DNA of 63,057 nt, counting the filler, from Aduncisulcus paluster (taxonomy: Eukaryota), in NCBI GenBank assembly GCA_024181965.1. It is 6 parts of 6 records of this genome, joined end to end, with 100 filler letters (N's around TTAATTAATTAA, not from the genome) between each part and the next. Parts side by side here need not be neighbours in the genome. Positions count along the whole stretch, not along the records: positions 16,816 to 23,338 come from BQXS01010043.1; 5 more parts are not named here. One strand, written 5' to 3'. The translations under genes were made by a program, and so were the position numbers. Within the stretch, counting starts at the first letter, position 1. Every line of letters begins with the position of its first letter. Of the stretch, positions 16,716-57,817 are shown piece by piece. Under the pieces are notes generated by a model that ran no database searches, was not told where the DNA came from, and worked only from the letters and a program-made list of their open reading frames with translations.

Positions 16716-16815
16716 NNNNNNNNNNNNNNNNNNNNNNNNNNNNNNNNNNNNNNNNNNNNTTAATTAATTAANNNNNNNNNNNNNNNNNNNNNNNNNNNNN
16801 NNNNNNNNNNNNNNN
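16716..16815. other. Artificial contig-join spacer
   Basis: N44-TTAATTAATTAA-N44, stops in all six frames; identical spacers elsewhere in the window. Confidence 0.97.
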
Positions 16816-16905: not shown

Positions 16906-17453
16906 CATTGAAAAATGATTATTACTATATTCATTACGACTGATTCAGTTCACTTAAAGTTTTAACGGTATCCAACATTTTTTGTCGACAATATTCATTT
17001 CATATCCATTTAATTTCCAATGAATCTATCATGGAAAACTCGTTTTATGAAACGAGTAAACATGCATATTGCCATTATTCTACTGTTTGAGCCGTTTTCG
17101 AAATTTGTTGTAAAGAACGAGTCAACAGACTAAAATTGGAAAAAATAAGATTTTAGTATGTAAACACTATATATTATTTTATTATATTGATTAATTGTGC
17201 TAGATTATCCGTCGTTGACGATTTTTAAAAATTTTTCATTTCTGATGATTTCAACTTTTCATAAAAGGAAAAGTGCAGAAATTTTTATTTTAGTACATAT
17301 TATATTCGAATTCAACGTTTTTATTACGCTAAATGAGGGTTTTCTGCGGAAAACAAGAAAGGAGGACATCCTCCAGAACAATGAAAAATTTCAGTATGTT
17401 ATGTTAATTATAAACATTTTATATATTTTTATAATCAATTTCGATGAGTTATG

Positions 17454-17531
17454 TGTTGGGGTTTCTCACCACTCTATTTATAGATCCCGGTTAGCCGGTT
17501 GTTTATTCAATAAATTTGCTAAGCCATAACA
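17454..17531 (+). repeat. 5' LTR (78 bp)
   Basis: TGTT...AACA ends; TATTTATA at 17475; AATAAA at 17509; identical to 22702-22779. Confidence 0.97.
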
Positions 17532-17546
17532 GTATTAATACTGAAT

Positions 17547-20500
17547 ATGACAAAGACCCCGAATAACAAGACCATTATTACCACGGAAAAAGGTCCAGAC
17601 CCTCCATTTCTAAAGGGATTGTCCACTGAGAATTGGTCCCATTTTGTTCGCGAGTACAAACATTATCAGAGCCTTGGAGGTGTTAAACCTTGGCCAGAAT
17701 TGGTAGACTCCGTAATCTTAACGGTCATTTCCGACTTGAGTAAGATAAAGGACTTCAAAAACAAGCAAGCTCGCAAAGAGGCCTTCGAAAAGGTAGATGC
17801 TGTGTTCGCATCCACAAGCGTGATCAATCTGTACGATCGCCTTCGTAAGGTCGCTATGGACAAGAAGTTGAATATCGATTCACTTCTGGCGTACACTGAG
17901 AAGTTTCGGGCCATCCGAGACAGATCTCCCAGCTTAGGTTCTGTAGAAGATGTCACGGACATATTTATTGATGGTCTGCATAAGAAGAGATTAAGAGACT
18001 GTGTTAGAGCCAAGTGTGATGAAAAGACTACCCTTTCCGAAGTCATATCTATTGCAACGAGTGAAACTACTCGCTTGCACGCACTGAAGCTCGAGAATGC
18101 TGCTTTAGATGAAGATGAGTCATCTTCTGGGGAAAAGACAGCTTCGTCCGAAACCCATTGTCAATATTGTGGAAAAAAAGGACACACGGCGAAGGAATGT
18201 CGGTTTATTGGAGGAAAACGACGTTATTCCTCTTCGTCTGCTCATACTCCACAGAAGCTCTTTAAGAAGAAACAAAGATGGATAAAGAGTAGAGACCCCA
18301 AGTACTCCCGCTTTTATCCAGACGTAATCTGCCGAAAGTGCGATAAAAAGGGACATTATGCGAAATTCTGTAAAGAACCTATCTCCAGTAAAGGTTCAGG
18401 TAAGTATTTTATAAAAGTTTTTTCGACATCAGGATTTTCTCCTTTTCGTAGGTCGATAGAAGTAATGAACACATTATCTGGGAAGGTTGTCCCTACCACT
18501 TGCCTTTTAGACTCGGGAACGTCGTCCTCGACTATCTCCAGACGTTTGTCAACCGAATTGGGATTGGTCATCAACTCGGAAGACATCCATTCGTTTGAAA
18601 TGGCAGATGGATCAGTTGGAACAACATTAGGTTCGACAAGTGCGACTATTATCGTGCAGGGTCCTGAAAAAAAGAAATTGGAGGTAGAAGAGAACTTTAT
18701 TGTCATTGAGATGAGAGAAAACTGCTCTCATGAAGTTCTTTTGTCTGGGAATTGTATTCGAAAACATGAGTTAATATCGTGGGACCAGATCAGCCAAGGT
18801 GAAGATGAGTCATCAACACTTGATGCAGATTTGGAAGATAACGTTATGGGATTTCCTCAGATGCGTTACCAACCCATCGAAATACATTGTGATATTGACG
18901 AACTAAAAGCCCCAATTGAAAAAATATTGGAAGATTATGAAAAGGAAATTGACAGGAATATGCCTGCCAATGTTCCTGATTACTCAATCAAACTAAAAGA
19001 AAACACACCGGTAAGAAGAAAATTAAGACCGCCACCTTTTGGCCTTGAAGAAGAACTGGGTGAAAAGATTGAGGACTTATTGAAAGATGGGTTTATCGTG
19101 GAGTCAAAAAGTTCGTATGCTGCCCCAATTGTCGTGGTGGAAAAGCCAGACAAATCAATCCGGATGTGCATAGATTATACGGGATTGAATTCTAAGATTG
19201 TTGATGATGTATATCCCATTCCCCTCCGTAGTGTTCTTTTCAGATCGCTACAAGGGATGAAATTGTTCGCCACGCTCGACTTAAAGAATGGATATTACCA
19301 TGTTCGCGTTGATAAAGACTCCAGACATCTCACTGCTTTTATCTCTCACAAAGGTTTATTTGAGTGGGTAAGAATGCCCTTTGGGCTGAAAACGGCCCCG
19401 AGCCACTTCCAAAGATGTGTAAATAGTCTGTTTCACGATATCATAGGTTCAAAAATTCTGATTTATTTAGATGACATTTTGGTGTTCGGAAAATCGGAAG
19501 AGGAATTCATTTCGAACCTATCAGAAGTGTTACGACGATTAGCAGAGTCCAACCTGTGTTTAAATTACGACAAGTGTAAATTTTGCTTAAAAGAAGTCAA
19601 ATACCTAGGGTTTACCATAAACGGGGAGGGCCGAAGGGTTACCGAGAAAAGGATTGAAGACATGAGGGAAATTCCCCCTCCGAAGAATAAGAAAGGCGTC
19701 CAGAAGTTATTAGGAGCCATAAATTTTGTCAGCGAGTTTATTGTCGATTATTCAAGAATTACAGAGCCTATTTCCCGATTACTACGACAAAAAACTGCAA
19801 AAATCGAATGGGGAATTGAACAACAGGAGGCTTGGGAGAAGATAGTATTAAGCCTCGAAAGTAGAATAACACTGGAACATCCAGTCAAAGATAAACAATT
19901 CATCCTCAGGACTGACGCTTCTACTACGGGAATTGGCGGAATTTTATTACAAAACATAGATGGTAAAGAAAAAGTAATCTCTCTGTTTTCCAAAAAATTC
20001 ACTCCGGCTGAGTCCGCATGGAGCACAATTGAACAGGAGGGATTTGGTGTCGTCTATGGAATCCTAAAAAACAAAGAATTCCTATTGGGCTCAGAATTTG
20101 TTGTAGAAACCGATCACAAGAATTTACTATATATATTTAAATCAGAAGTTCCCAAGCTTGTGAGGTGGAGACTTATCCTCGCCCCTTTCTCATTTTCAAT
20201 ACGCCACATAAAAGGAGTTGATAATGCGACAGCGGACTTCCTAAGTCGTATTCCTTCAGGGAATTTACAGCTTAAAGCTCTGCAAGTATCAGAAACGGAA
20301 CCACAAACTCAAGATTCAGAGCACCCAGAAGTACCTGTTAAAAGGATTTTAGAAGTTCATGAGAGACTGGGACATGCCTCTGCAAGAGCCACAACAAAGG
20401 AATTAAAAAGAATTGGATTTACAGAAAAGAATTTATTTAAACGTGTGAACAAAGAAATCATGGCCTGCATATCCTGTCAAAAGAACAGGGTAAGTAAGAA

Positions 20501-21599
20501 GAAAAAATTTTTTGGACGATTAAAATCATCCCAGGCTTGGTCGACGCTGTCAATAGATACAGTAGGACCTGTTGAGACCGATGAGGATGGATTCAAGTAT
20601 TTCATTGTGATTATCGACGATTTTACTCGTTTTGCGATAATCTCTCCAACAAAAACTGCATCAAAAGAAGAGTCAGTAAGGGAAATAAGGAGGTTAGTAA
20701 GCCTCTTCGGTTGTCCCAAAAGTATAAGGACCGACGGAGGAGGTCAGTTTATAGCTTCAGAGTTTGAGGATTTATTAAAGTCTTTTGGTATCTCACACAT
20801 AAAAACAATACCTGGAGACCACGAAGCTAATGGAAAAGTGGAGCGATTAAATCGCGAGGTCAGGAGATTGCTCAGAATTTATTCGTTAGAAAACGATTTT
20901 TTGAATTATCATGAATTCTGCGATTGGTGTTGCCTTGCTATAAATAGCAGAGAACATTCTGTGACAAAACAAAGTCCATTTGCTGCTTTGTTCGCAAGAG
21001 AATCATTTTTTACTTCATCAGATAAAGAAATAGATGGAGAGTCAGAGGTAGTAGAAGTATCGACATATGTAAAAGATCTAAAAGAACGAATGCATGGGTT
21101 ACATAAAGAAATTACTGACATTGATGCTCCCCAAACAGAGGAAGCACTTGCTGTTGATGAATTTAAAATAGGAGATTTAGTCTTATGGAAAAAAGAAACC
21201 ATAAAGTCAAAACAGAAATCTTTATTAGCCGGCCCATTTGTTGTGAAAGAAAAACAATCTGATTTTCGGTACGTTCTGAAAAAACTTGATGGAGATGAGA
21301 CCTTTTTGGTCCCTTTAAAAAGAATTATTCCTTTTATACCGGGAAATCACGACCATGACAGTCTTATTAAGGCTGCGGCTAAAGACGATGAAGAATTCCA
21401 AGTAGAATGCATTCTCAGACACAAGTTTGGCACAAAAAAGCCAATTAAATTTAAGATAAGGTGGAAACATTATGGCGAAGAAGAAGATTCCTGGGAAGAC
21501 TATACTACTGTAAAAGATTTAGAGGCTCTGGATGAATATTTCGCCAAACACCCAAATCTCAAGAAAAAGTTTATTAGAAAAGAGGTAAACGCTATTTAA
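17547..21599 (+). CDS. Gag-Pol polyprotein: two CCHC knuckles, aspartic protease, reverse transcriptase, RNase H, integrase, chromodomain
   Basis: CQYCGKKGHTAKEC and CRKCDKKGHYAKFC; LLDSGT; MPFGL...YLDD; TDAS; HERLGH..CISC; D-D-E (IDTVGP, RTDGG, VERLNR); GPF; EEFQVECILRHK...IRWKHYGEEEDSWE. Confidence 0.97.
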   Translation: MTKTPNNKTIITTEKGPDPPFLKGLSTENWSHFVREYKHYQSLGGVKPWPELVDSVILTVISDLSKIKDFKNKQARKEAFEKVDAVFASTSVINLYDRLRKVAMDKKLNIDSLLAYTEKFRAIRDRSPSLGSVEDVTDIFIDGLHKKRLRDCVRAKCDEKTTLSEVISIATSETTRLHALKLENAALDEDESSSGEKTASSETHCQYCGKKGHTAKECRFIGGKRRYSSSSAHTPQKLFKKKQRWIKSRDPKYSRFYPDVICRKCDKKGHYAKFCKEPISSKGSGKYFIKVFSTSGFSPFRRSIEVMNTLSGKVVPTTCLLDSGTSSSTISRRLSTELGLVINSEDIHSFEMADGSVGTTLGSTSATIIVQGPEKKKLEVEENFIVIEMRENCSHEVLLSGNCIRKHELISWDQISQGEDESSTLDADLEDNVMGFPQMRYQPIEIHCDIDELKAPIEKILEDYEKEIDRNMPANVPDYSIKLKENTPVRRKLRPPPFGLEEELGEKIEDLLKDGFIVESKSSYAAPIVVVEKPDKSIRMCIDYTGLNSKIVDDVYPIPLRSVLFRSLQGMKLFATLDLKNGYYHVRVDKDSRHLTAFISHKGLFEWVRMPFGLKTAPSHFQRCVNSLFHDIIGSKILIYLDDILVFGKSEEEFISNLSEVLRRLAESNLCLNYDKCKFCLKEVKYLGFTINGEGRRVTEKRIEDMREIPPPKNKKGVQKLLGAINFVSEFIVDYSRITEPISRLLRQKTAKIEWGIEQQEAWEKIVLSLESRITLEHPVKDKQFILRTDASTTGIGGILLQNIDGKEKVISLFSKKFTPAESAWSTIEQEGFGVVYGILKNKEFLLGSEFVVETDHKNLLYIFKSEVPKLVRWRLILAPFSFSIRHIKGVDNATADFLSRIPSGNLQLKALQVSETEPQTQDSEHPEVPVKRILEVHERLGHASARATTKELKRIGFTEKNLFKRVNKEIMACISCQKNRVSKKKKFFGRLKSSQAWSTLSIDTVGPVETDEDGFKYFIVIIDDFTRFAIISPTKTASKEESVREIRRLVSLFGCPKSIRTDGGGQFIASEFEDLLKSFGISHIKTIPGDHEANGKVERLNREVRRLLRIYSLENDFLNYHEFCDWCCLAINSREHSVTKQSPFAALFARESFFTSSDKEIDGESEVVEVSTYVKDLKERMHGLHKEITDIDAPQTEEALAVDEFKIGDLVLWKKETIKSKQKSLLAGPFVVKEKQSDFRYVLKKLDGDETFLVPLKRIIPFIPGNHDHDSLIKAAAKDDEEFQVECILRHKFGTKKPIKFKIRWKHYGEEEDSWEDYTTVKDLEALDEYFAKHPNLKKKFIRKEVNAI

Positions 21600-22493
21600 A
21601 TTCAGTTGAGGAAAATAAACTGAATAAAATGTCATAAAACAACTTTAGTCAAAGAGATTTGAGAATTTTTGAAAACTTGTTTTTGTGAACTTCACATACC
21701 CTTGAAGAATACAATATAATATAATTTAATTTAAAAAGGCATTAAAATGATATATATAAACGATATTTTATTATTATATCGTGAATTAAAAGGGTTTCAA
21801 GGACATTTTCGATTGTATTTACAAATTAGTGAATGAACCACATGGGCAAATTAATTTGCAAATTAATCTGTTGTGAATCATAAATTAATACGGGTTTCAC
21901 GTATACGCAATTCACAAGGGCTTGGACCCCACAAGAGTTACAAATGTTGTCTTTCGGCGATATCTTAAATTATTTCGCGTTATTATGAACAAAAAAGTTG
22001 ATTCAGTTATTATAAGAAATCTTTTACGCCATTTTATAGTTAATGCTAATAGTAATGAATATTTTTGGGAAAAATGTTCGGAACCGTTGTGTTTGTTAAA
22101 TAATTCAAAAAGAAAACACCCAAAAAACAGATTTTATTGGTAAACGATCATAACATAAGTCGAAACTTGATCAGAAATTGGTTGAAAAAAAGTTTAAGGG
22201 AAATCACCAAAAAACTTCATCCTATCTTAAAAATAAGAGGGGGAAGAGAGGAATTACAATTATTTTAAAGATAATATTCAGGTTAAAAACAAGATATATT
22301 GGAAAGAATGATTAGAAATTAAAAGTTTGATCGTTGTTAATTCAGACAGGTTTCAAACAAGTTTTAAAAGTATGATACCTGATGATTGGCTGCATTCATT
22401 AAGGTTTTGTTTGTCATAGGAGTTAAAGAAGGTATTTTGAACATTTTCATAAAATTAGATTCCACTGAGAAGCAAGGGTGCCTCAGGGTAAAA

Positions 22494-22567
22494 TAGTGAT
22501 GACGGGAATCGAACCCGCGACTTGAAGGTTCTTAACGAAGAGGCCTTACCAACTGAACTAGATTATG
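22494..22567 (-). ncRNA. tRNA-like Pol III cassette (degenerate cloverleaf) inside the retrotransposon 3' non-coding region
   Basis: Minus strand: A box TAGTTCAGTTGG, B box GGTTCGATTCC in an intact T-arm (GCGGG-TTCGATT-CCCGT), tRNA-like spacing (~74 nt), then TTTT. Acceptor and anticodon stems do not pair. Confidence 0.65.
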
Positions 22568-22685
22568 AATTTAAAAGAAAATAATAATTTATATTAATAA
22601 GAGAAAAACTGTATAAAGATCAACCACGATAGAGAGTGTTCCTTTATCATGGTATCGAGAAAGATTAAGCGCTTAACCGGTTCCT

Positions 22686-22701
22686 AGAAATAGGGGGGAA
22701 G
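22686..22701 (+). other. Polypurine tract (plus-strand primer)
   Basis: AGAAATAGGGGGGAAG immediately upstream of the 3' LTR. Confidence 0.9.
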
Positions 22702-22779
22702 TGTTGGGGTTTCTCACCACTCTATTTATAGATCCCGGTTAGCCGGTTGTTTATTCAATAAATTTGCTAAGCCATAACA
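22702..22779 (+). repeat. 3' LTR (78 bp)
   Basis: Identical to the 5' LTR; followed by TTATG. Confidence 0.97.
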
Positions 22780-23338
22780 TTATGATACTTTTTTAAAGTA
22801 GTTTATTGTCTTGATCTTTTTCTTGACGATTATAAAGAATTTTATAAAATCGAAGGACGGAAAATTAACTTATAGGTTAATTCTAAGTCACTGATAACCG
22901 GTAAAATACCGATTCACTCCTTCAAAAGGTTTTTTCGAAAAATCTTGTTTTTCGTTCGGTTTTGTAATTATTTTAGACAAAAGCAAAGAAATTTATGATT
23001 TTAGAGATTAAGAAGAAAGATTTATTTATTAAATCCTTTTTAATTTTGCTAATTCAAATTTTTCGACTTTTTGCTTTTTTCACACACGAACCGAGTCGCG
23101 ATTCGGTTAACAATTATCAATTACACTAGTGATAAGCGTTATACTTTAAAGATATTACATCTTTTTCATTGAAATATCTTTCTATTTCAGATCGTATTTT
23201 TCCCTTTCCTTCCATCGAGCCTTCGCTCTGAGAGGGGTAGAAGTGGGGAAAATACACTCTATCTATGTTAATTATATGTTGTTCTTTTATTTCACTTCTT
23301 AATTTTAAATAAGAAGAAGGAACAAGAAGTATTTTTCA

Positions 23339-23438
23339 NNNNNNNNNNNNNNNNNNNNNNNNNNNNNNNNNNNNNNNNNNNNTTAATTAATTAANNNNNN
23401 NNNNNNNNNNNNNNNNNNNNNNNNNNNNNNNNNNNNNN
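23339..23438. other. Artificial contig-join spacer
   Basis: N44-TTAATTAATTAA-N44. Confidence 0.97.
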
Positions 23439-26400
23439 AAGAAAAGAGGAAGAAAGAAAACTATTTTTGCTTGAAAAATCCAAATTCCAAGATGAAAGAT
23501 CTAAATTATTAGAATTGCAGGCCAAATTGGAAGAGAAAGAGCAGTTATTGATCAAAATGCAAGAAGAGGAAAAATTAAAATTAGAACAATTAAAAATTGA
23601 AGAAATTGAAAGAGAAGAGAGAAGGAAACAAGAGGAAGATGAAAGGAAAAGAAGAGAAGAAGAAGAGGAGGAAGAAAGGAGAAAAGAAATAGAGAAAAGA
23701 AAGAAAGAGGAAGAGGAAGAAGAGAAGTGGAGAAAAGAAGAGGAAGAAAAAAGGCAAAGAAAGGAAGAAGAAGAGCGAAGAAAGCGTGAAGAAGAGGAGA
23801 AGAAAAGAATAGAAATTGAAGAAAAAAGGAGAGAAGAAGAGCGACTTTTGCTTGAGAAAGAACGTGATAGTTTACAAAAACAGAAAGAGTTGTTAGAATT
23901 GGAATGGGAAAAGAAACAAGAATGGTTGAAAAACGAACAGATTAAGTTTGAACAAGAAAGAAGAAGAAGAGAAGAGAAGGAAAGAAGAGGAAGAGGAATT
24001 GAAAAGAAAGAAGGAAGAAGAAGAAAAACTACGAGAAGAAGAAGAAGAGAGGAGAAAAGCGGAAGAAGAGAAAAGAATTACACTTCGTTTGCAGAAAGAA
24101 GAGGAAGAAGAGAAAGAAAGGGAAACACAAAAGGAAATCCAAAGAAAAGCATGGGAAAAGGAGGAACAGGAATGGCTTGAAAAACTTGAGAAACTTCGTA
24201 TTCGACGTGAAAAGGAGGAAAAGGAGCTTCAAAAATGGGCAGAGATGAGGAAAGCTTGGAAGATTGAAGAAGAGGAATATACAAAGCGTAAGGTGAGTTC
24301 AGAGGCTCAAAAAGAAGCAGGAGAGGCTCAAAAAGAAGCAGGAACAGACAATGTTGAGACCGATCTATTTTTAGGAGCAACATTTGCAGAAGAGGATATT
24401 GTTGAGGAATTGGTGGGGAAAACTGAAGAAGAGGAAGAGGAGGAAGAAGAGGAAGTGGGAGGAAAAGAAGATGCAAAAGAAGATATAGAAATTGAAGAGG
24501 AAGATTCTGAGGAAGAACAAGATCTCTCCCCAGCTCAAAAGAAGCTTCGAGCAGCTGAGGATGAACTGTTACATACAGAGACTGGATATTTATCTTCCCT
24601 CTCCTCTCTCTGTGATATAGTCGAACGGCTTGAGTCCAAACATGGTTTCACTGAATTATCAGAGATTGGTGCCATTGCAAAGATGATGAAGGCCAATTCA
24701 CAGCATTTGGTCGATGATCTGACATGTATTCTGCCGCCATTCAAATCGTTATATCTGACCCTTGCGAGAGATGGTGAGGAATCGTTATCAATAGAGGAGA
24801 GAGAAAAGAAGAGAAGGGAAGAACGGAGAGCAAAAAAGAAGGATGCTAATCAGCGTCGATTGAATAGAATTCAGAAAGCTGGACCATCACATTCAATATC
24901 TATAATACATGGTTTACCACTCGCAGAACGTGCTAGTGAGGCCCTTGTGATGGCTGTGCGGTCGTTCACTCTCTCTTATCTCTATTTATGTAGATATGAT
25001 CAAGTTGCTGCCTCTCTTAAGCTTGCTCCGAAACATATTAAAGATGAGATCATGAATTTTGAGATGAAAATGCAGTCCCCGATGGAAGTTTTCCTTATTC
25101 GACCAGTGAGAAGGTACCCTGAGTATGAGTTAATCATGAAGGAGCTTGTCAAACAATCTGGACGTGTGTATGGTGTTGATCATCCCATCCATAAGGAATA
25201 TATTTGTGCCCAACAAAGTATAGTCGCAGTTAATGAATTTGCCAATGATTGCAAAAGTAAGGTCGATTTCTGTCGAGCTAGTATGCTGATTCCACACATC
25301 ACGACCCATGTTCCTGTGTCCGTTCGAGCTATTCTTGGGAGTGGCAGGAATGGTGTGTTTCCGACAGATATGATGCTCCCTCAGAGACCCAAGAGTAAGA
25401 AAGGAGACAAAAGGAGCAGAGTTGATACGCCCCTATGTTCAGACATGTGGGATAGATGCACATCCATGTATGAGAAATATGTGAATAATGAGCAACATTC
25501 TCACGTGGCCTTAAAATATATATTAAATAATTCTACCGTGGATATTCCTCCTCTCCTCTCTTCTCTCGAAGTTTCTAATGATCAAAATGATACATCGGGT
25601 GTTCCAAATTCTGCAATGATTCCACAATATGTAGTGGACTCGACCCCTGAATATAGTCATCATACAACTCCACTTGCTAGAACTTTGCTCTGGGAAGGAA
25701 TAATGAAGGTTCTCGTGCAGAATTATGGCGATTTCACTGATCCTCCGAGCTCTCCATTTGAGTTTCCAAAGAGAAACCCACACGATGATACAATGACCCT
25801 TGGAGATCCTCGCTTGGGCCTACGATTCTCCAAAGGTGGAAGGAAAGGTGCTCTCGAATATAAAGAGCGGCTTGTATTATTGTTCACTGATTGTGTTGTC
25901 ATTCTTAAACAACGTGATCGCCGTGAATTTGTCCAATGTCTCGCTCATGCTGATAAACTTGAGGAAAATGATACATCGGGTGTTCCAAATTCTGCAATGA
26001 TTCCACAATATGTAGTGGACTCGACCCCTGAATATAGTCATCATACAACTCCACTTGCTAGAACTTTGCTCTGGGAAGGAATAATGAAGGTTCTCGTGCA
26101 GAATTATGGCGATTTCACTGATCCTCCGAGCTCTCCATTTGAGTTTCCAAAGAGAAACCCACACGATGATACAATGACCCTTGGAGATCCTCGCTTGGGC
26201 CTACGATTCTCCAAAGGTGGAAGGAAAGGTGCTCTCGAATATAAAGAGCGGCTTGTATTATTGTTCACTGATTGTGTTGTCATTCTTAAACAACGTGATC
26301 GCCGTGAATTTGTCCAATGTCTCGCTCATGCTGATAAACTTGAGGAAAAGGATACAATCGGGCACTTTGTTGGATCTCCAAGTGAAGTGGCTGGTGGTCT

Positions 26401-27745: not shown

Positions 27746-27945
27746 AACTTTATATCATTTGTTCAAAAAAAAAAAAAAAAAAAAAAAAAAGAAGAAGAAA
27801 GGAAACAGTGATATTTCACTGAAATAGATCAAGACTTGATCAACAAAAAAGTTCATGAATCATGAAGGAATTCTTCATTGATATTTTGAATCAAAATTTG
27901 AATATTTCTATTTCTTTCAATGAAAAATTGAGATAAATCTGAGAT

Positions 27946-30268: not shown

Positions 30269-30368
30269 NNNNNNNNNNNNNNNNNNNNNNNNNNNNNNNN
30301 NNNNNNNNNNNNTTAATTAATTAANNNNNNNNNNNNNNNNNNNNNNNNNNNNNNNNNNNNNNNNNNNN
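30269..30368. other. Artificial contig-join spacer
   Basis: N44-TTAATTAATTAA-N44. Confidence 0.97.
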
Positions 30369-33300: not shown

Positions 33301-35943
33301 TGAATTGTTGACTCGACTCTTTTGCAGCGATTCGAAGACAGTTGATTTCTGATTCGCACAGAGAGAGAACAGTAAGGAAGAACGGATGGGTGTTTCTATT
33401 AATAAATCCACGGTGAGAAGAAAAGTAAGAAGGGAAAGGGAAGATTGAATTCAGAGAGTTGGAAATTGAAGGGAAAGAGAAACACAAGAGATCGAGAAGC
33501 AAAGAAACGAATCGTTCACGATCACTTCCGTAAGAAGAATGTTTATGTTTGTGTTTCCTTTTTTGACTGAGTTCAACAGGTTGACTATCATGCGGAAACT
33601 TTGAGAATGCCGGAAAATCTGTAAGACCAACGGATGAAGACATGCCTTGATCATCATCAAATGATAATTTCTCAGAATCTAAAAATAGAATCATCTTTGG
33701 GAGAATATGGGGATATGTCACCAAGATAGACCCACATTTGGCAGCAACTTTGATCAATTGGAGTGCATCATCAGGCAGGGAAGGAGTCTCTTCAAGGAGT
33801 ACGGACCCCTTGGCAAGGTCAGCAAGAGAAGGGTTGAGAGACAACTGGATTGGTAATGTAAGATCGATTCTCCGTGATTGTTGTTCCAGATGGGAAGGTG
33901 TTTTCCAATGAGAGGTTGGAGAAGATCTCTTGGGAGGAGGAGGACGAGAGAGTAAAGAGAGAGTTTTGTCGGAAGGAACAGTCGATAAAGAAGAAGTTGA
34001 AGAAGTTTTGACGAGGATAGTATTCCCTTTGGAATTACAATGAATCACCCATCCATTGCTCTCTTGGCGTTGTGCGAATTCAAGGATCTGGCGTGTGGAT
34101 GCTACATGGAAGAATGTACGATAGAATGCCGGAAGAGGCGGATGTAAATGAGACGTAGATGACACGTGAGATTTGAATTGTTTGAAGAGCATTGGAGAAG
34201 GAACCAAGAGAGATTGAGAGGAAGACGGGATCACATGCGTGGAGGGGGAACCAGGATGTACAGGACCGTGGGAAAGGGAGAGATCATGGGAAGCAAGGAA
34301 GGGCGAATAGTGTGTTCGACGGGAGGAAGTTCTAACAAACTCTCCAGCTTGACCATCAGTTTTGGGGGAAGATTGCAAAATGTGATGATAAGNNNNNNNN
34401 NNNNNNNNNNNNTAGATGACACGTGAGATTTGAATTGTTTGAAGAGCATTGGAGAAGGAACCAAGAGAGATTGAGAGGAAGACGGGATCACATGCGTGGA
34501 GGGGGAACCAGGATGTACAGGACCGTGGGAAAGGGAGAGATCATGGGAAGCAAGGAAGGGCGAATAGTGTGTTCGACGGGAGGAAGTTCTAACAAACTCT
34601 CCAGCTTGACCATCAGTTTTGGGGGAAGATTGCAAAATGTGATGATAAGAAAGAGGATCAGCTTCATGGGATTGGTGAGTCGTGCTGGATGTGCCAGGGC
34701 GTTTTGACATTTCTTTCTCTTTCTCTCTCTCTTTCAAGAGCATAATGTGATAGTTTCGAAGTAAAATCTTACGTTTCAATTGTATCTTCTTCCATTGAGA
34801 ATGTTCTAAAAATAGAGACAGTGCAACTGCATTCAATTGATTGAGTGAGGGCAGAGTGTACGGGGAATAAAGAGCCGTCGAGTGAGTAGATCCGTATGAT
34901 TCTGAGGCTTCAATGCCGAGGCCAGTTTCACGAAGACTTTGAGAAGGACCATCCATCATTGGATTTGGGGAAGCCGAGGAGAGGAAGAGGAGGAGACGAG
35001 AGGAAAGAGCAGAGAGAGAAGGAAGGAAATCTAACTGTTGTTGGAGAATGGCTCTCAGTTCAGGAGTAAGGGCACGTGACTCGGGGTCATGAGAAAACGT
35101 TGGAGTCAAATCCTTTGAAAACACACTCCCAAGCTGTGAGATCCACCCAAACTCAGACTCCGTAACATTACCTTGATGCTCTTTCCTTTTCCCCTTTGAA
35201 GGTGAACTTGAACCGGCAGTCTCAATTCCAGGTTTAAGCTCAGAGCCAATGTTTGTCTCACCTGCATGACTGCTTGTTTGACCTTCATCTACTATCGAAT
35301 CAGAGGTGTGACCATATTGTACTTGATGTTGAAGTAACTCGATATTGGATGTTATCTCCCCCTGAATGTCCTCTGCTTTGGCTTTGGCTCCAGCAGCTTC
35401 TCTCTTGCCATCAGGACTAGATGTAGCGTTATAAGAGACACCTGGGGACATATCAAGGAGATCTGAGGGTTTACGGACAACTGGGGTTTGTTCTTCACCT
35501 TCTTCCTTCTCAATTGAACCTGAGAATATATCCCCATTGAATAAGGTAGAAGACATAAATAGATCGGTGCTATGTTGAACTCCTTTCATGTATTCATGGT
35601 TTTCTTTCTCAATCTCAGCCTGGAATATACGTTCTTCCTGCTCTTTCCGCTCTTTTTCTCTCTGAACAAGAGCTTCTTTGGCAATTTTTTCTTTCTTTTC
35701 GCGATCTTTCCGTTCTCTATCTCTAATTTCACGATTTAGTTTTTCTTTCTGAACCTTCTGTCGTTTTTTATCCCTTGCTTTCTTATTTTCATACATATGG
35801 AACTGTTTCAACTTTCTAGTTCTATTTTTAGACCTGGGTGAGAGAGTTCGTGCCAAATGAGAAGAAGATTCTCCAGAAGCGAGTGTCTGTTGACGATACG
35901 ATGATTGATCTTTCCTTGGTTTAGACACGCTAATCATTCGATG
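30369..35943 (-). CDS. Large Ser-rich hypothetical protein, 3' truncated and possibly 5' partial, split by a gap overlap at 34393-34412
   Basis: ORFs 34231-35937 and 30317-34378 share a 237-bp duplicated overlap (34156-34392 = 34413-34649); the frame fills the contig. Confidence 0.7.
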
Positions 35944-36043
35944 NNNNNNNNNNNNNNNNNNNNNNNNNNNNNNNNNNNNNNNNNNNNTTAATTAATTAAN
36001 NNNNNNNNNNNNNNNNNNNNNNNNNNNNNNNNNNNNNNNNNNN
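35944..36043. other. Artificial contig-join spacer
   Basis: N44-TTAATTAATTAA-N44. Confidence 0.97.
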
Positions 36044-44902: not shown

Positions 44903-45535
44903 GTGAGGCTAAGGGCACAAACAGGAAGGAAGGAAGAGTTAGAGTGGATAATCACTCAAGAATCTATTTTGGGATATAGGACGAAATAAAGAAATAGAAT
45001 ATATGATTGGAATGGAATTATAAATAATATGAAACAATAAAAAGAGTTTCGGCTTCTTCTTTCTTTAAATTATCCCCATTTAAACGCTGTTGGTTATTAG
45101 CTCAAAGAAAATAGAAAGGCGATTAAATAGTTCTTTTATTAAATATATTCTTGTTGTTATTATTGGATTCTCATTTAAATTTTCTGGTGTTAGCTGAACT
45201 AGCTTTCTGTCAATCAAAACAAATTATCTCTTCTGTTTGAAACTGTTTCAAAATGTTATCTTGAAGATAACATTTATAATATCGCAAATAAATTGAATAA
45301 ACTGATCAACTTCCATTTTTAAAAAGCAATCTCGAGATAGAAATGCAGGGAAATGTTTGTCGTTAGTCCATTTTAATTTTCACAATAAATGCAATAAAAT
45401 AATGGTAATAATTTGAATTAATGCATTTAATTCCAAAATATTGCAAAATTTAGGTAAAATTTCGAACTATATTTTTTTTTGATTGTCGAGAGCTCTTTTT
45501 GACGTTCCTTCAATAAGAAAAAGATCATATTTGGT

Positions 45536-49166: not shown

Positions 49167-49652
49167 TCTAGATCAACAAATAACAATAGGATGGGAAGAA
49201 AATAGAAATAGAATAAAATATCCAAGTTAATACAATATTAATTTGTATATGTGGACAAAAGGGAAACTTGGTTGGGACCCAAACTTTGGGTGTCCGATAG
49301 ACGTCGTAAAGAATAAATTATTCAAGATATATTCTTCGCATCATCAAGAATAGATTCATATAATATTGAAAGTTTGTCAATTTTTAACATCAATTAATCC
49401 TATATTCTTGTGTGATCAAAACTTTTGATCAGAGATTGGCAATCTCTATTCCGAATCAAAATCAGATCAAATATATATTATAACAGACAAAATCATCATC
49501 AATTTCGATAGGTAATTATTTTTAATTATAGTTGTTATATACTATTATCTCACATCAACTCAATGATTTCTTCTTGGTTCAGAGTTCGGATTTTTGATCA
49601 CAACTTTTTCTTTCGAATTCCCAACTAAAACACCACATATTTTTCAATTAGT

Positions 49653-57717: not shown

Positions 57718-57817
57718 NNNNNNNNNNNNNNNNNNNNNNNNNNNNNNNNNNNNNNNNNNNNTTAATTAATTAANNNNNNNNNNNNNNNNNNNNNNNNNNN
57801 NNNNNNNNNNNNNNNNN
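57718..57817. other. Artificial contig-join spacer
   Basis: N44-TTAATTAATTAA-N44. Confidence 0.97.

Follow-up and report, generated by a model that had tools for sequence, protein, structure and literature searches.

We found that a retrotransposon of Aduncisulcus paluster, a free-living relative of Giardia among the fornicates (metamonad protists), carries a perfect 14-nt palindrome where a tRNA primer-binding site (PBS) would be expected. This even palindrome, CAGTATTAATACTG (17530-17543, + strand), has 7-nt arms and is made up of the last 2 nucleotides of the 5′ LTR and the first 12 of the 15 nucleotides of the leader, and we propose that it is a substitute for the PBS. The reading that we tentatively lean towards is that the palindrome is the initiation site of the minus strand, replacing the tRNA PBS, and that RNA of the element itself most likely acts as the primer.

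Structure and insertion of the element

The window, by which we mean the whole stretch of DNA that was analysed (63,057 nucleotides, filler included), consists of contigs joined by N44-TTAATTAATTAA-N44 spacers at 16716-16815, 23339-23438, 30269-30368, 35944-36043 and 57718-57817. As the window is not one molecule, adjacency across these spacers is meaningless. Seven 20-N gaps lie inside contigs, and one of these is flanked by a 237-nt exact direct repeat (34156-34392 and 34413-34649) which is probably an assembly artefact. Another repeat, of 300 nt and 99% identity (25579-25878 and 25960-26259), was found within a RhoGEF-like ORF.

The contig at 16816-23338 (6523 bp) contains one complete LTR retrotransposon at 17454-22779 (5326 bp), and Pfam searches of 15 other large ORFs of the window gave no further retroelement. 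The element has the following features, all on the + strand: a target site duplication (TSD) of TTATG at 17449-17453 and 22780-22784; two identical 78-bp LTRs, TGTTGG...ATAACA, at 17454-17531 and 22702-22779; a single gag-pol ORF of 1350 aa at 17547-21599, which encodes a CCHC knuckle, RT, RNase H, integrase and a chromodomain; and a polypurine tract (PPT), AGGGGGGAAG, at 22692-22701, which adjoins the 3′ LTR. LTRs beginning with TG and ending with CA, together with a PPT and a TSD, are features of the Metaviridae, and the LTR length of 78 bp is unusually short. In the polyprotein, Pfam identified RVT_1 at residues 531-691, RNase H at 755-881 and rve at 1000-1091, giving the order RT - RNase H - integrase, and chromodomain PF00385 was present at the integrase C-terminus (residues 1284-1333, E 3e-8, 33.8 bits with a cut-off of 25.1). 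The best solved relative of the polyprotein was Ty3 Gag-Pol (E 4e-83). Based on its pol domain order, its chromodomain and this best solved relative, the element is a Ty3/gypsy chromovirus (Metaviridae).

Three small features were noted inside the LTR, again on the + strand. The TATA-like TATTTATA (17475-17482) is a putative promoter motif, and it is followed by a small inverted repeat, CCGG-TTAG-CCGG (17487-17498), and by an odd palindrome, TTTATT-C-AATAAA (17502-17514). The right part of this palindrome is an AATAAA (17509-17514) which may be the 3′-end signal, while its left part is the Tf1-like candidate at 17504-17512 that is considered below. The putative transcript start and R region were placed only from TATTTATA and this AATAAA.

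The 1.1-kb 3′ tail of the element includes a decayed tRNA-like unit in antisense (22490-22572, - strand), 120-210 nt upstream of the PPT. This comprises an A-box-like TAGTTCAGTTGG (22549-22560), a B-box/T-arm GGTTCGATTCC (22505-22515) and a T4 run (22490-22493), without an acceptor 5′ strand. ARAGORN called 0 tRNA genes in the window, the tRNA-like unit being left uncalled, and Rfam gave no match in the window at gathering score. When Rfam matches with E ≤ 1 were considered within 17300-22900, only an 18-nt T-arm match (E 0.015) was found, and this lay in the tRNA-like unit.

We compared the window to run X1, a DNA run (Logan contigs) which contains 0.96 of the stretch's words and may be the window's own assembly data. 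Over 17000-23000, two X1 contigs join 17448 straight to 22780, skipping 5331 bases and keeping a single TTATG, the 5 letters of which fit on either side of the joint; this is the empty site. The filled site is also present in X1, where the pieces displayed list no letters that differ from it, and at 17454-17710 no variant or indel is listed. In this sample the site is polymorphic for the insertion, which is carried either by a subpopulation or by one of several chromosome copies. Word depth reached 7221 at the empty joint and 6068 in a flank contig compared to 1208 in the element contig, suggesting that the filled form is a minority in the sample, although it should be noted that word depths are not copy numbers.

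The ends of the LTRs are known exactly, as they are fixed by the identity of the 78-bp LTRs, by the TSD and by an empty-site contig which likewise comes from X1. Because the empty and filled sites coexist, the LTRs are identical and the frame is open, the transposition was a recent one, and judging by its sequence the element looks active. It follows from this recent movement that whatever sequence stands at the primer position should be functional.

Other X1 contigs also overlap the element. One contig of 4753 nt runs through 18206-22700 and then 17453-17710, i.e. PPT-LTR-leader-gag, and could be a one-LTR circle or a tandem copy, or else an artefact in which the k-mer graph was followed across the shared 78-bp LTR. 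In a short contig, at approximately 2x the element depth, LTR positions 17454-17518 (65 nt) are joined to diverged pieces of the RT region (19320-19414 and 19689-~19757). An LTR variant in X1 has one base missing at each of 22746 and 22749 (equivalent to 17498 and 17501 in the 5′ LTR), and another variant has only the PPT and the first 15 LTR bases in common with the element. From these variant LTR contigs it can be concluded that related families or deletion derivatives exist in the genome. Among the runs listed as containing the element there was no RNA run, and run X2, whose identification as RNA is no more than a guess, contained no contig on the LTR or leader.

The proteins nearest to the polyprotein were P0002 and P0003, which are full-length A. 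paluster polyproteins with 40% and 39% identity, respectively, aligned from the first methionine. No relatives were found in the metagenome scan with the polyprotein or in the viral_contigs scan. A scan with a 3-sequence alignment returned 80 loci, all distant gypsy elements; among these, gag identity to P0001 was never greater than 27%, and the gag of P0002 and P0003 was unmatched beyond one 26-residue stretch. Seven contigs were treated as circular, and 3 of them (L080, L055 and L057) had ordinary TGG sites, as judged by eye.

The palindrome at the primer position

An earlier note on this DNA had drawn attention to the short distance between the 5′ LTR and gag, to the lack of a PBS initiated by TGG and to a palindrome straddling the LTR end, and we found all three as described. 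Between A17531, the final base of the LTR, and the gag ATG at 17547 there is a 15-nt leader, GTATTAATACTGAAT, which contains no TGG and so does not have the canonical site for a tRNA 3′ end. The palindrome is perfect and crosses an LTR end which is fixed independently, by the TSD and the empty-site contig. Because this end is fixed, the 3′ end of the primer must pair at 17532-17534, and inside the palindrome G17532 is opposite C17541, which is the correct geometry for the pairing that the note had proposed. The palindrome is extended by its flanks into an imperfect inverted repeat, CATA.CAGTATTAATACTG..TATG (17525-17549, + strand), which appears in the MFE fold, includes the ATG and has one small asymmetry.

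A site lacking TGG might instead be used by a host small RNA, such as an internal tRNA fragment or half or some other abundant RNA, with a 3′ end complementary to GTATTAATAC(TGAAT), in which case the palindromy would be incidental. Certain copia lineages are known to be primed by half-tRNAs (PMC6317226), but a mature tRNA 3′ end needs the TGG which this leader does not contain. Furthermore, the required primer would be AU-rich and itself a gapless palindrome, which on inspection misfits a 5+7+5 anticodon arm. The element's own tRNA-like unit, considered as a primer, is missing from the 8 best antisense partners that were listed by the duplex scan described below, and in GalEa palindromy itself appears to be the conserved feature (PMC5445492). 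We consider priming by a host small RNA unlikely.

It should also be asked whether the palindrome has any role, as it may have arisen by chance or be a mutational scar of a palindrome-making process acting across the genome's non-coding DNA. Palindromes are dense in this DNA: we observed 8 even palindromes with arms of at least 7 nt in the whole window, compared to 4.46 ± 2.4 expected from 50 Markov simulations, and all 8 of them lay in the window's 14,340 non-coding bases. Odd palindromes in this size class numbered 17 in the window, of which 15 were non-coding. Within the element, further palindromes are present in the LTR (17502-17514) and the 3′ tail (21846-21867). The chance of an even palindrome spanning one given boundary is ~0.007, and that of any palindrome doing so ~0.02. 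Since the non-coding DNA here is palindrome-rich, a palindrome on the LTR boundary of a single copy is suggestive, and constitutes weak rather than compelling evidence. However, an origin without function does not sit easily with the fact that the palindrome occupies the only place for primer binding in an element whose transposition is evidently very recent, nor with the lack of any variant or indel listed across that region in X1, nor with the published parallel of GalEa (PMC5445492). We therefore see this explanation, too, as having only a small probability.

The palindromes in the 3′ tail at 21846-21867 are two overlapping even palindromes, GCAAATTAATTTGC and ATTAATTTGCAAATTAAT. Elsewhere in the window, an 86-nt stretch (27812-27897) just 3′ of the stop (27745) of a RhoGEF/BUD3-like ORF contains four perfect odd palindromes whose arms measure 7 nt, and more odd palindromes are present at 45236-45275 and 49413-49447.

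To examine which sequences could pair with the site, we took all 30-nt windows along the element RNA and tested each for pairing with 17528-17552. The site itself ranked first as a partner (-20.7 kcal/mol), followed by a discontinuous match at -12.6 kcal/mol, and the R region was not among the 12 best partners. On the antisense strand of the element, the trivial full complement aside, no partner went beyond -12.6 kcal/mol. Apart from the site itself, no sequence within the element's RNA pairs with it strongly. The energies of the 14-mer were -2.2 kcal/mol as a hairpin versus -16.6 kcal/mol as a homodimer, and those of the extended repeat (17525-17549) were -3.7 and -19.6 kcal/mol, respectively. 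In the MFE fold the palindrome is the stem itself, and the extended stem sequesters the AUG. The 181-nt leader folded no better than shuffled sequences (z 0.42).

A strong predicted homodimer (-16.6 to -19.6 kcal/mol) and a sequestered AUG are also what would be expected if the palindrome were a dimerisation, packaging or translation-control signal and priming took place by some other route. Retroviral dimer initiation is driven by palindromes, as discussed in PMC5445492, but there the palindrome of the DIS lies in a hairpin loop beside a separate PBS, whereas here it is a stem and there is no PBS. In addition, the 15-nt leader offers nothing else that could be a candidate site for a primer, the hairpin formed by the monomer is weak and, as noted above, the 181-nt leader is not distinguished from its shuffles. 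A role restricted to such signalling seems to us rather doubtful.

The earlier note had described complementarity to the RNA 5′ end, of the kind used by Tf1, as only partial, and our comparison bears this out. We compared every LTR word to leader positions anchored at 17532-17539, making 560 comparisons. The best match was TATTCAATA at 17504 against 17539-17547, with 8/9 positions matching, 6 contiguous pairs and a distance of 7 nt from the LTR end; we estimate that ~1 such match would be expected by chance over the 560 comparisons. For Tf1-type self-priming in cis, the start of the mRNA (~17504, UAUUCAAUA) would have to fold onto 17539-17547 and be cut to give the primer, and integrase would have to trim 7 extra bases. 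The match starts 29 nt 3′ of the first base of TATTTATA (17475), and about 29 nt from TATA is a typical distance for a TATA-directed start. Like the members of the Tf1/sushi group, the element is a chromovirus. In Tf1, about half of the cDNA keeps a full copy of the PBS as a single-stranded 3′ tail (PMC11042837), from which it may be supposed that a tail beyond CA is tolerable. Against this, there are only 6 contiguous pairs, with ~0.2 such chance matches estimated within the likely start zone alone, the match does not figure among the 12 best duplex partners, and besides lying away from the LTR end it would have to compete for pairing with the palindrome's 3′ arm. We judge priming of the Tf1 type to be very unlikely here.

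A possible course of initiation

We return to our preferred reading, in which the element's own RNA is the primer. Pairing in vivo, the nick, the nuclease that makes it and the use of a dimer are all steps which we infer. Two co-packaged genomic RNAs would pair via CAGUAUUAAUACUG, and the fold-back of a single RNA is less likely. The earlier note had put forward fold-back or dimer self-priming; the dimer holds up, as the two-RNA duplex is strong (-16.6 kcal/mol), while the fold-back loses ground, its hairpin being weak (-2.2 kcal/mol). The two-RNA duplex is also favoured because a hairpin, once cut, would keep just 3 pairs round a 4-nt loop, whereas the duplex would keep 10-12.

One strand would then be nicked inside the duplex, either after C17541 or, if integrase trims two bases (GT), after U17539, and the candidate nuclease is the RNase H of the RT, by the precedent of Tf1. 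The nicked element RNA would end in ...GUAUUAAUAC or ...GUAUUAAU. Its new 3′-OH would face G17532, the first base past the LTR, and its extension through the very short U5 and R would produce the strong-stop DNA.

The uncut partner RNA would retain the site for the second strand transfer, and plus-strand synthesis into the attached primer would rewrite GTATTAATAC. As the site is its own complement, this copying of the primer would regenerate the same sequence. Because the second jump needs an intact site, either only one of the two RNAs would be cut or the first jump would go to an uncut genome. An asymmetric cut must be assumed, since cutting both RNAs would lose the site for the second jump. 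A different source of the 3′-OH, which we offer as speculation, would be the premature 3′-end cleavage of a short transcript ~26 nt past AATAAA, at ~17541.

It is conceivable, though doubtful, that such elements represent a third route of initiation, in which two packaged genomes pair via a palindrome spanning the LTR end, one of them is nicked within the duplex and sacrificed as primer, and the site is rebuilt owing to its palindromy. This route would have arisen independently in fornicate chromoviruses and in fungal GalEa copia elements, and would accompany LTRs of ~80 bp.

Comparison with known priming systems

The priming mode of reverse transcription is a defining trait of retroelements and, to our knowledge, only two routes have been shown experimentally: priming by a host tRNA and the self-primer of Tf1. 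A palindrome in place of the PBS is a known but unexplained arrangement, previously published only for fungal copia elements. The earlier note had therefore rated its novelty too highly, as a palindrome which includes the last LTR base and stands in place of the PBS is already described for the fungal GalEa copia elements (PMC5445492). In our literature search, judged by titles and abstract openings, there was no paper on a chromovirus with a palindrome at the primer-binding site and none linking Aduncisulcus with transposable elements, and only one further paper besides PMC5445492 named the Conserved Hairpin Site in retrotransposons.

The A. paluster element adds a tractable example, which belongs to another superfamily and to a distantly related eukaryote and which bears signs of very recent movement, as there is a complete copy with both LTRs, a TSD and an empty-site allele, the leader is 15 bases long and the palindrome can be placed exactly in relation to the LTR end. 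If the palindrome does prime, this would explain how the element copes with 78-bp LTRs and almost no U5, and it would constitute a convergent loss of dependence on host tRNA.

The palindrome resembles the DIS of HIV-1 and HIV-2 in being a 5′-leader palindrome able to join two genomic RNAs, but it forms a stem at the position of the PBS, whereas that of the DIS lies in a hairpin loop beside a tRNA PBS (PMC5445492). Copia elements primed by half-tRNAs (1/2tRNA-Met and 1/2tRNA-Ile; PMC6317226) likewise have a PBS which does not start with TGG. Their sites match internal tRNA sequence, in contrast to the site described here, which is AU-rich and self-complementary and by inspection misfits the anticodon arm.

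In Tf1, the mRNA's initial 11 bases pair with the PBS and the RNase H of the RT cuts the RNA duplex at its end, creating the self-primer (PMC7175516); Tj1 and plant chromoviruses of the Tcn1 clade are predicted to self-prime in the same way (PMC4600332, PMC6317226). Our element is similar to the Tf1/sushi group (Tf1, Tf2 and Tj1) in that it is a chromovirus, encodes gag-pol in a single frame and lacks a tRNA PBS, and its primer is probably its own RNA; the cutting of an RNA duplex by RNase H in that group is a precedent for the creation of a 3′-OH. Unlike in Tf1, the complement within the LTR is not beyond chance and the site pairs with itself, and the nick that we propose would lie within a continuous duplex, compared to the cut at the duplex end in Tf1.

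GalEa is a group of fungal Ty1/copia elements (Donnart et al. 2017, PMC5445492) which has no PBS and carries a conserved 9-bp box, CHSeq1, that is palindromic together with the final A of the 5′ LTR, and a second box, CHSeq2, 12-41 bp downstream of CHSeq1. The same authors state that GalEa fits no known priming model. The main variants of CHSeq1, CTGATCAGT and CTAATTAGT, differ at positions 3 and 6, and in our reading of these sequences the two changes appear to preserve the palindrome. We scanned 17542-17680 (139 nt) for a second box of the CHSeq2 type, and the best candidate matched at 8/10 with a G-U at 17630, followed by 7/10, which is chance level. The A. paluster element is like the Conserved Hairpin Site of GalEa in having no tRNA PBS and no LTR complementarity of the Tf1 kind, and in having a short AT-cored palindrome right after the 5′ LTR which is complete only with the terminal LTR base or bases, in this case CA. 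It is unlike GalEa in being a Ty3/gypsy chromovirus, with the gypsy domain order and a chromodomain, rather than a Ty1/copia element, and in its host, which is a metamonad protist rather than a member of the Pezizomycotina. The palindrome itself is also longer, at 14 nt with 2 LTR bases compared to 10 nt with 1 in GalEa, and in place of a second box 12-41 bp downstream, its flanks extend the same inverted repeat as far as the ATG.
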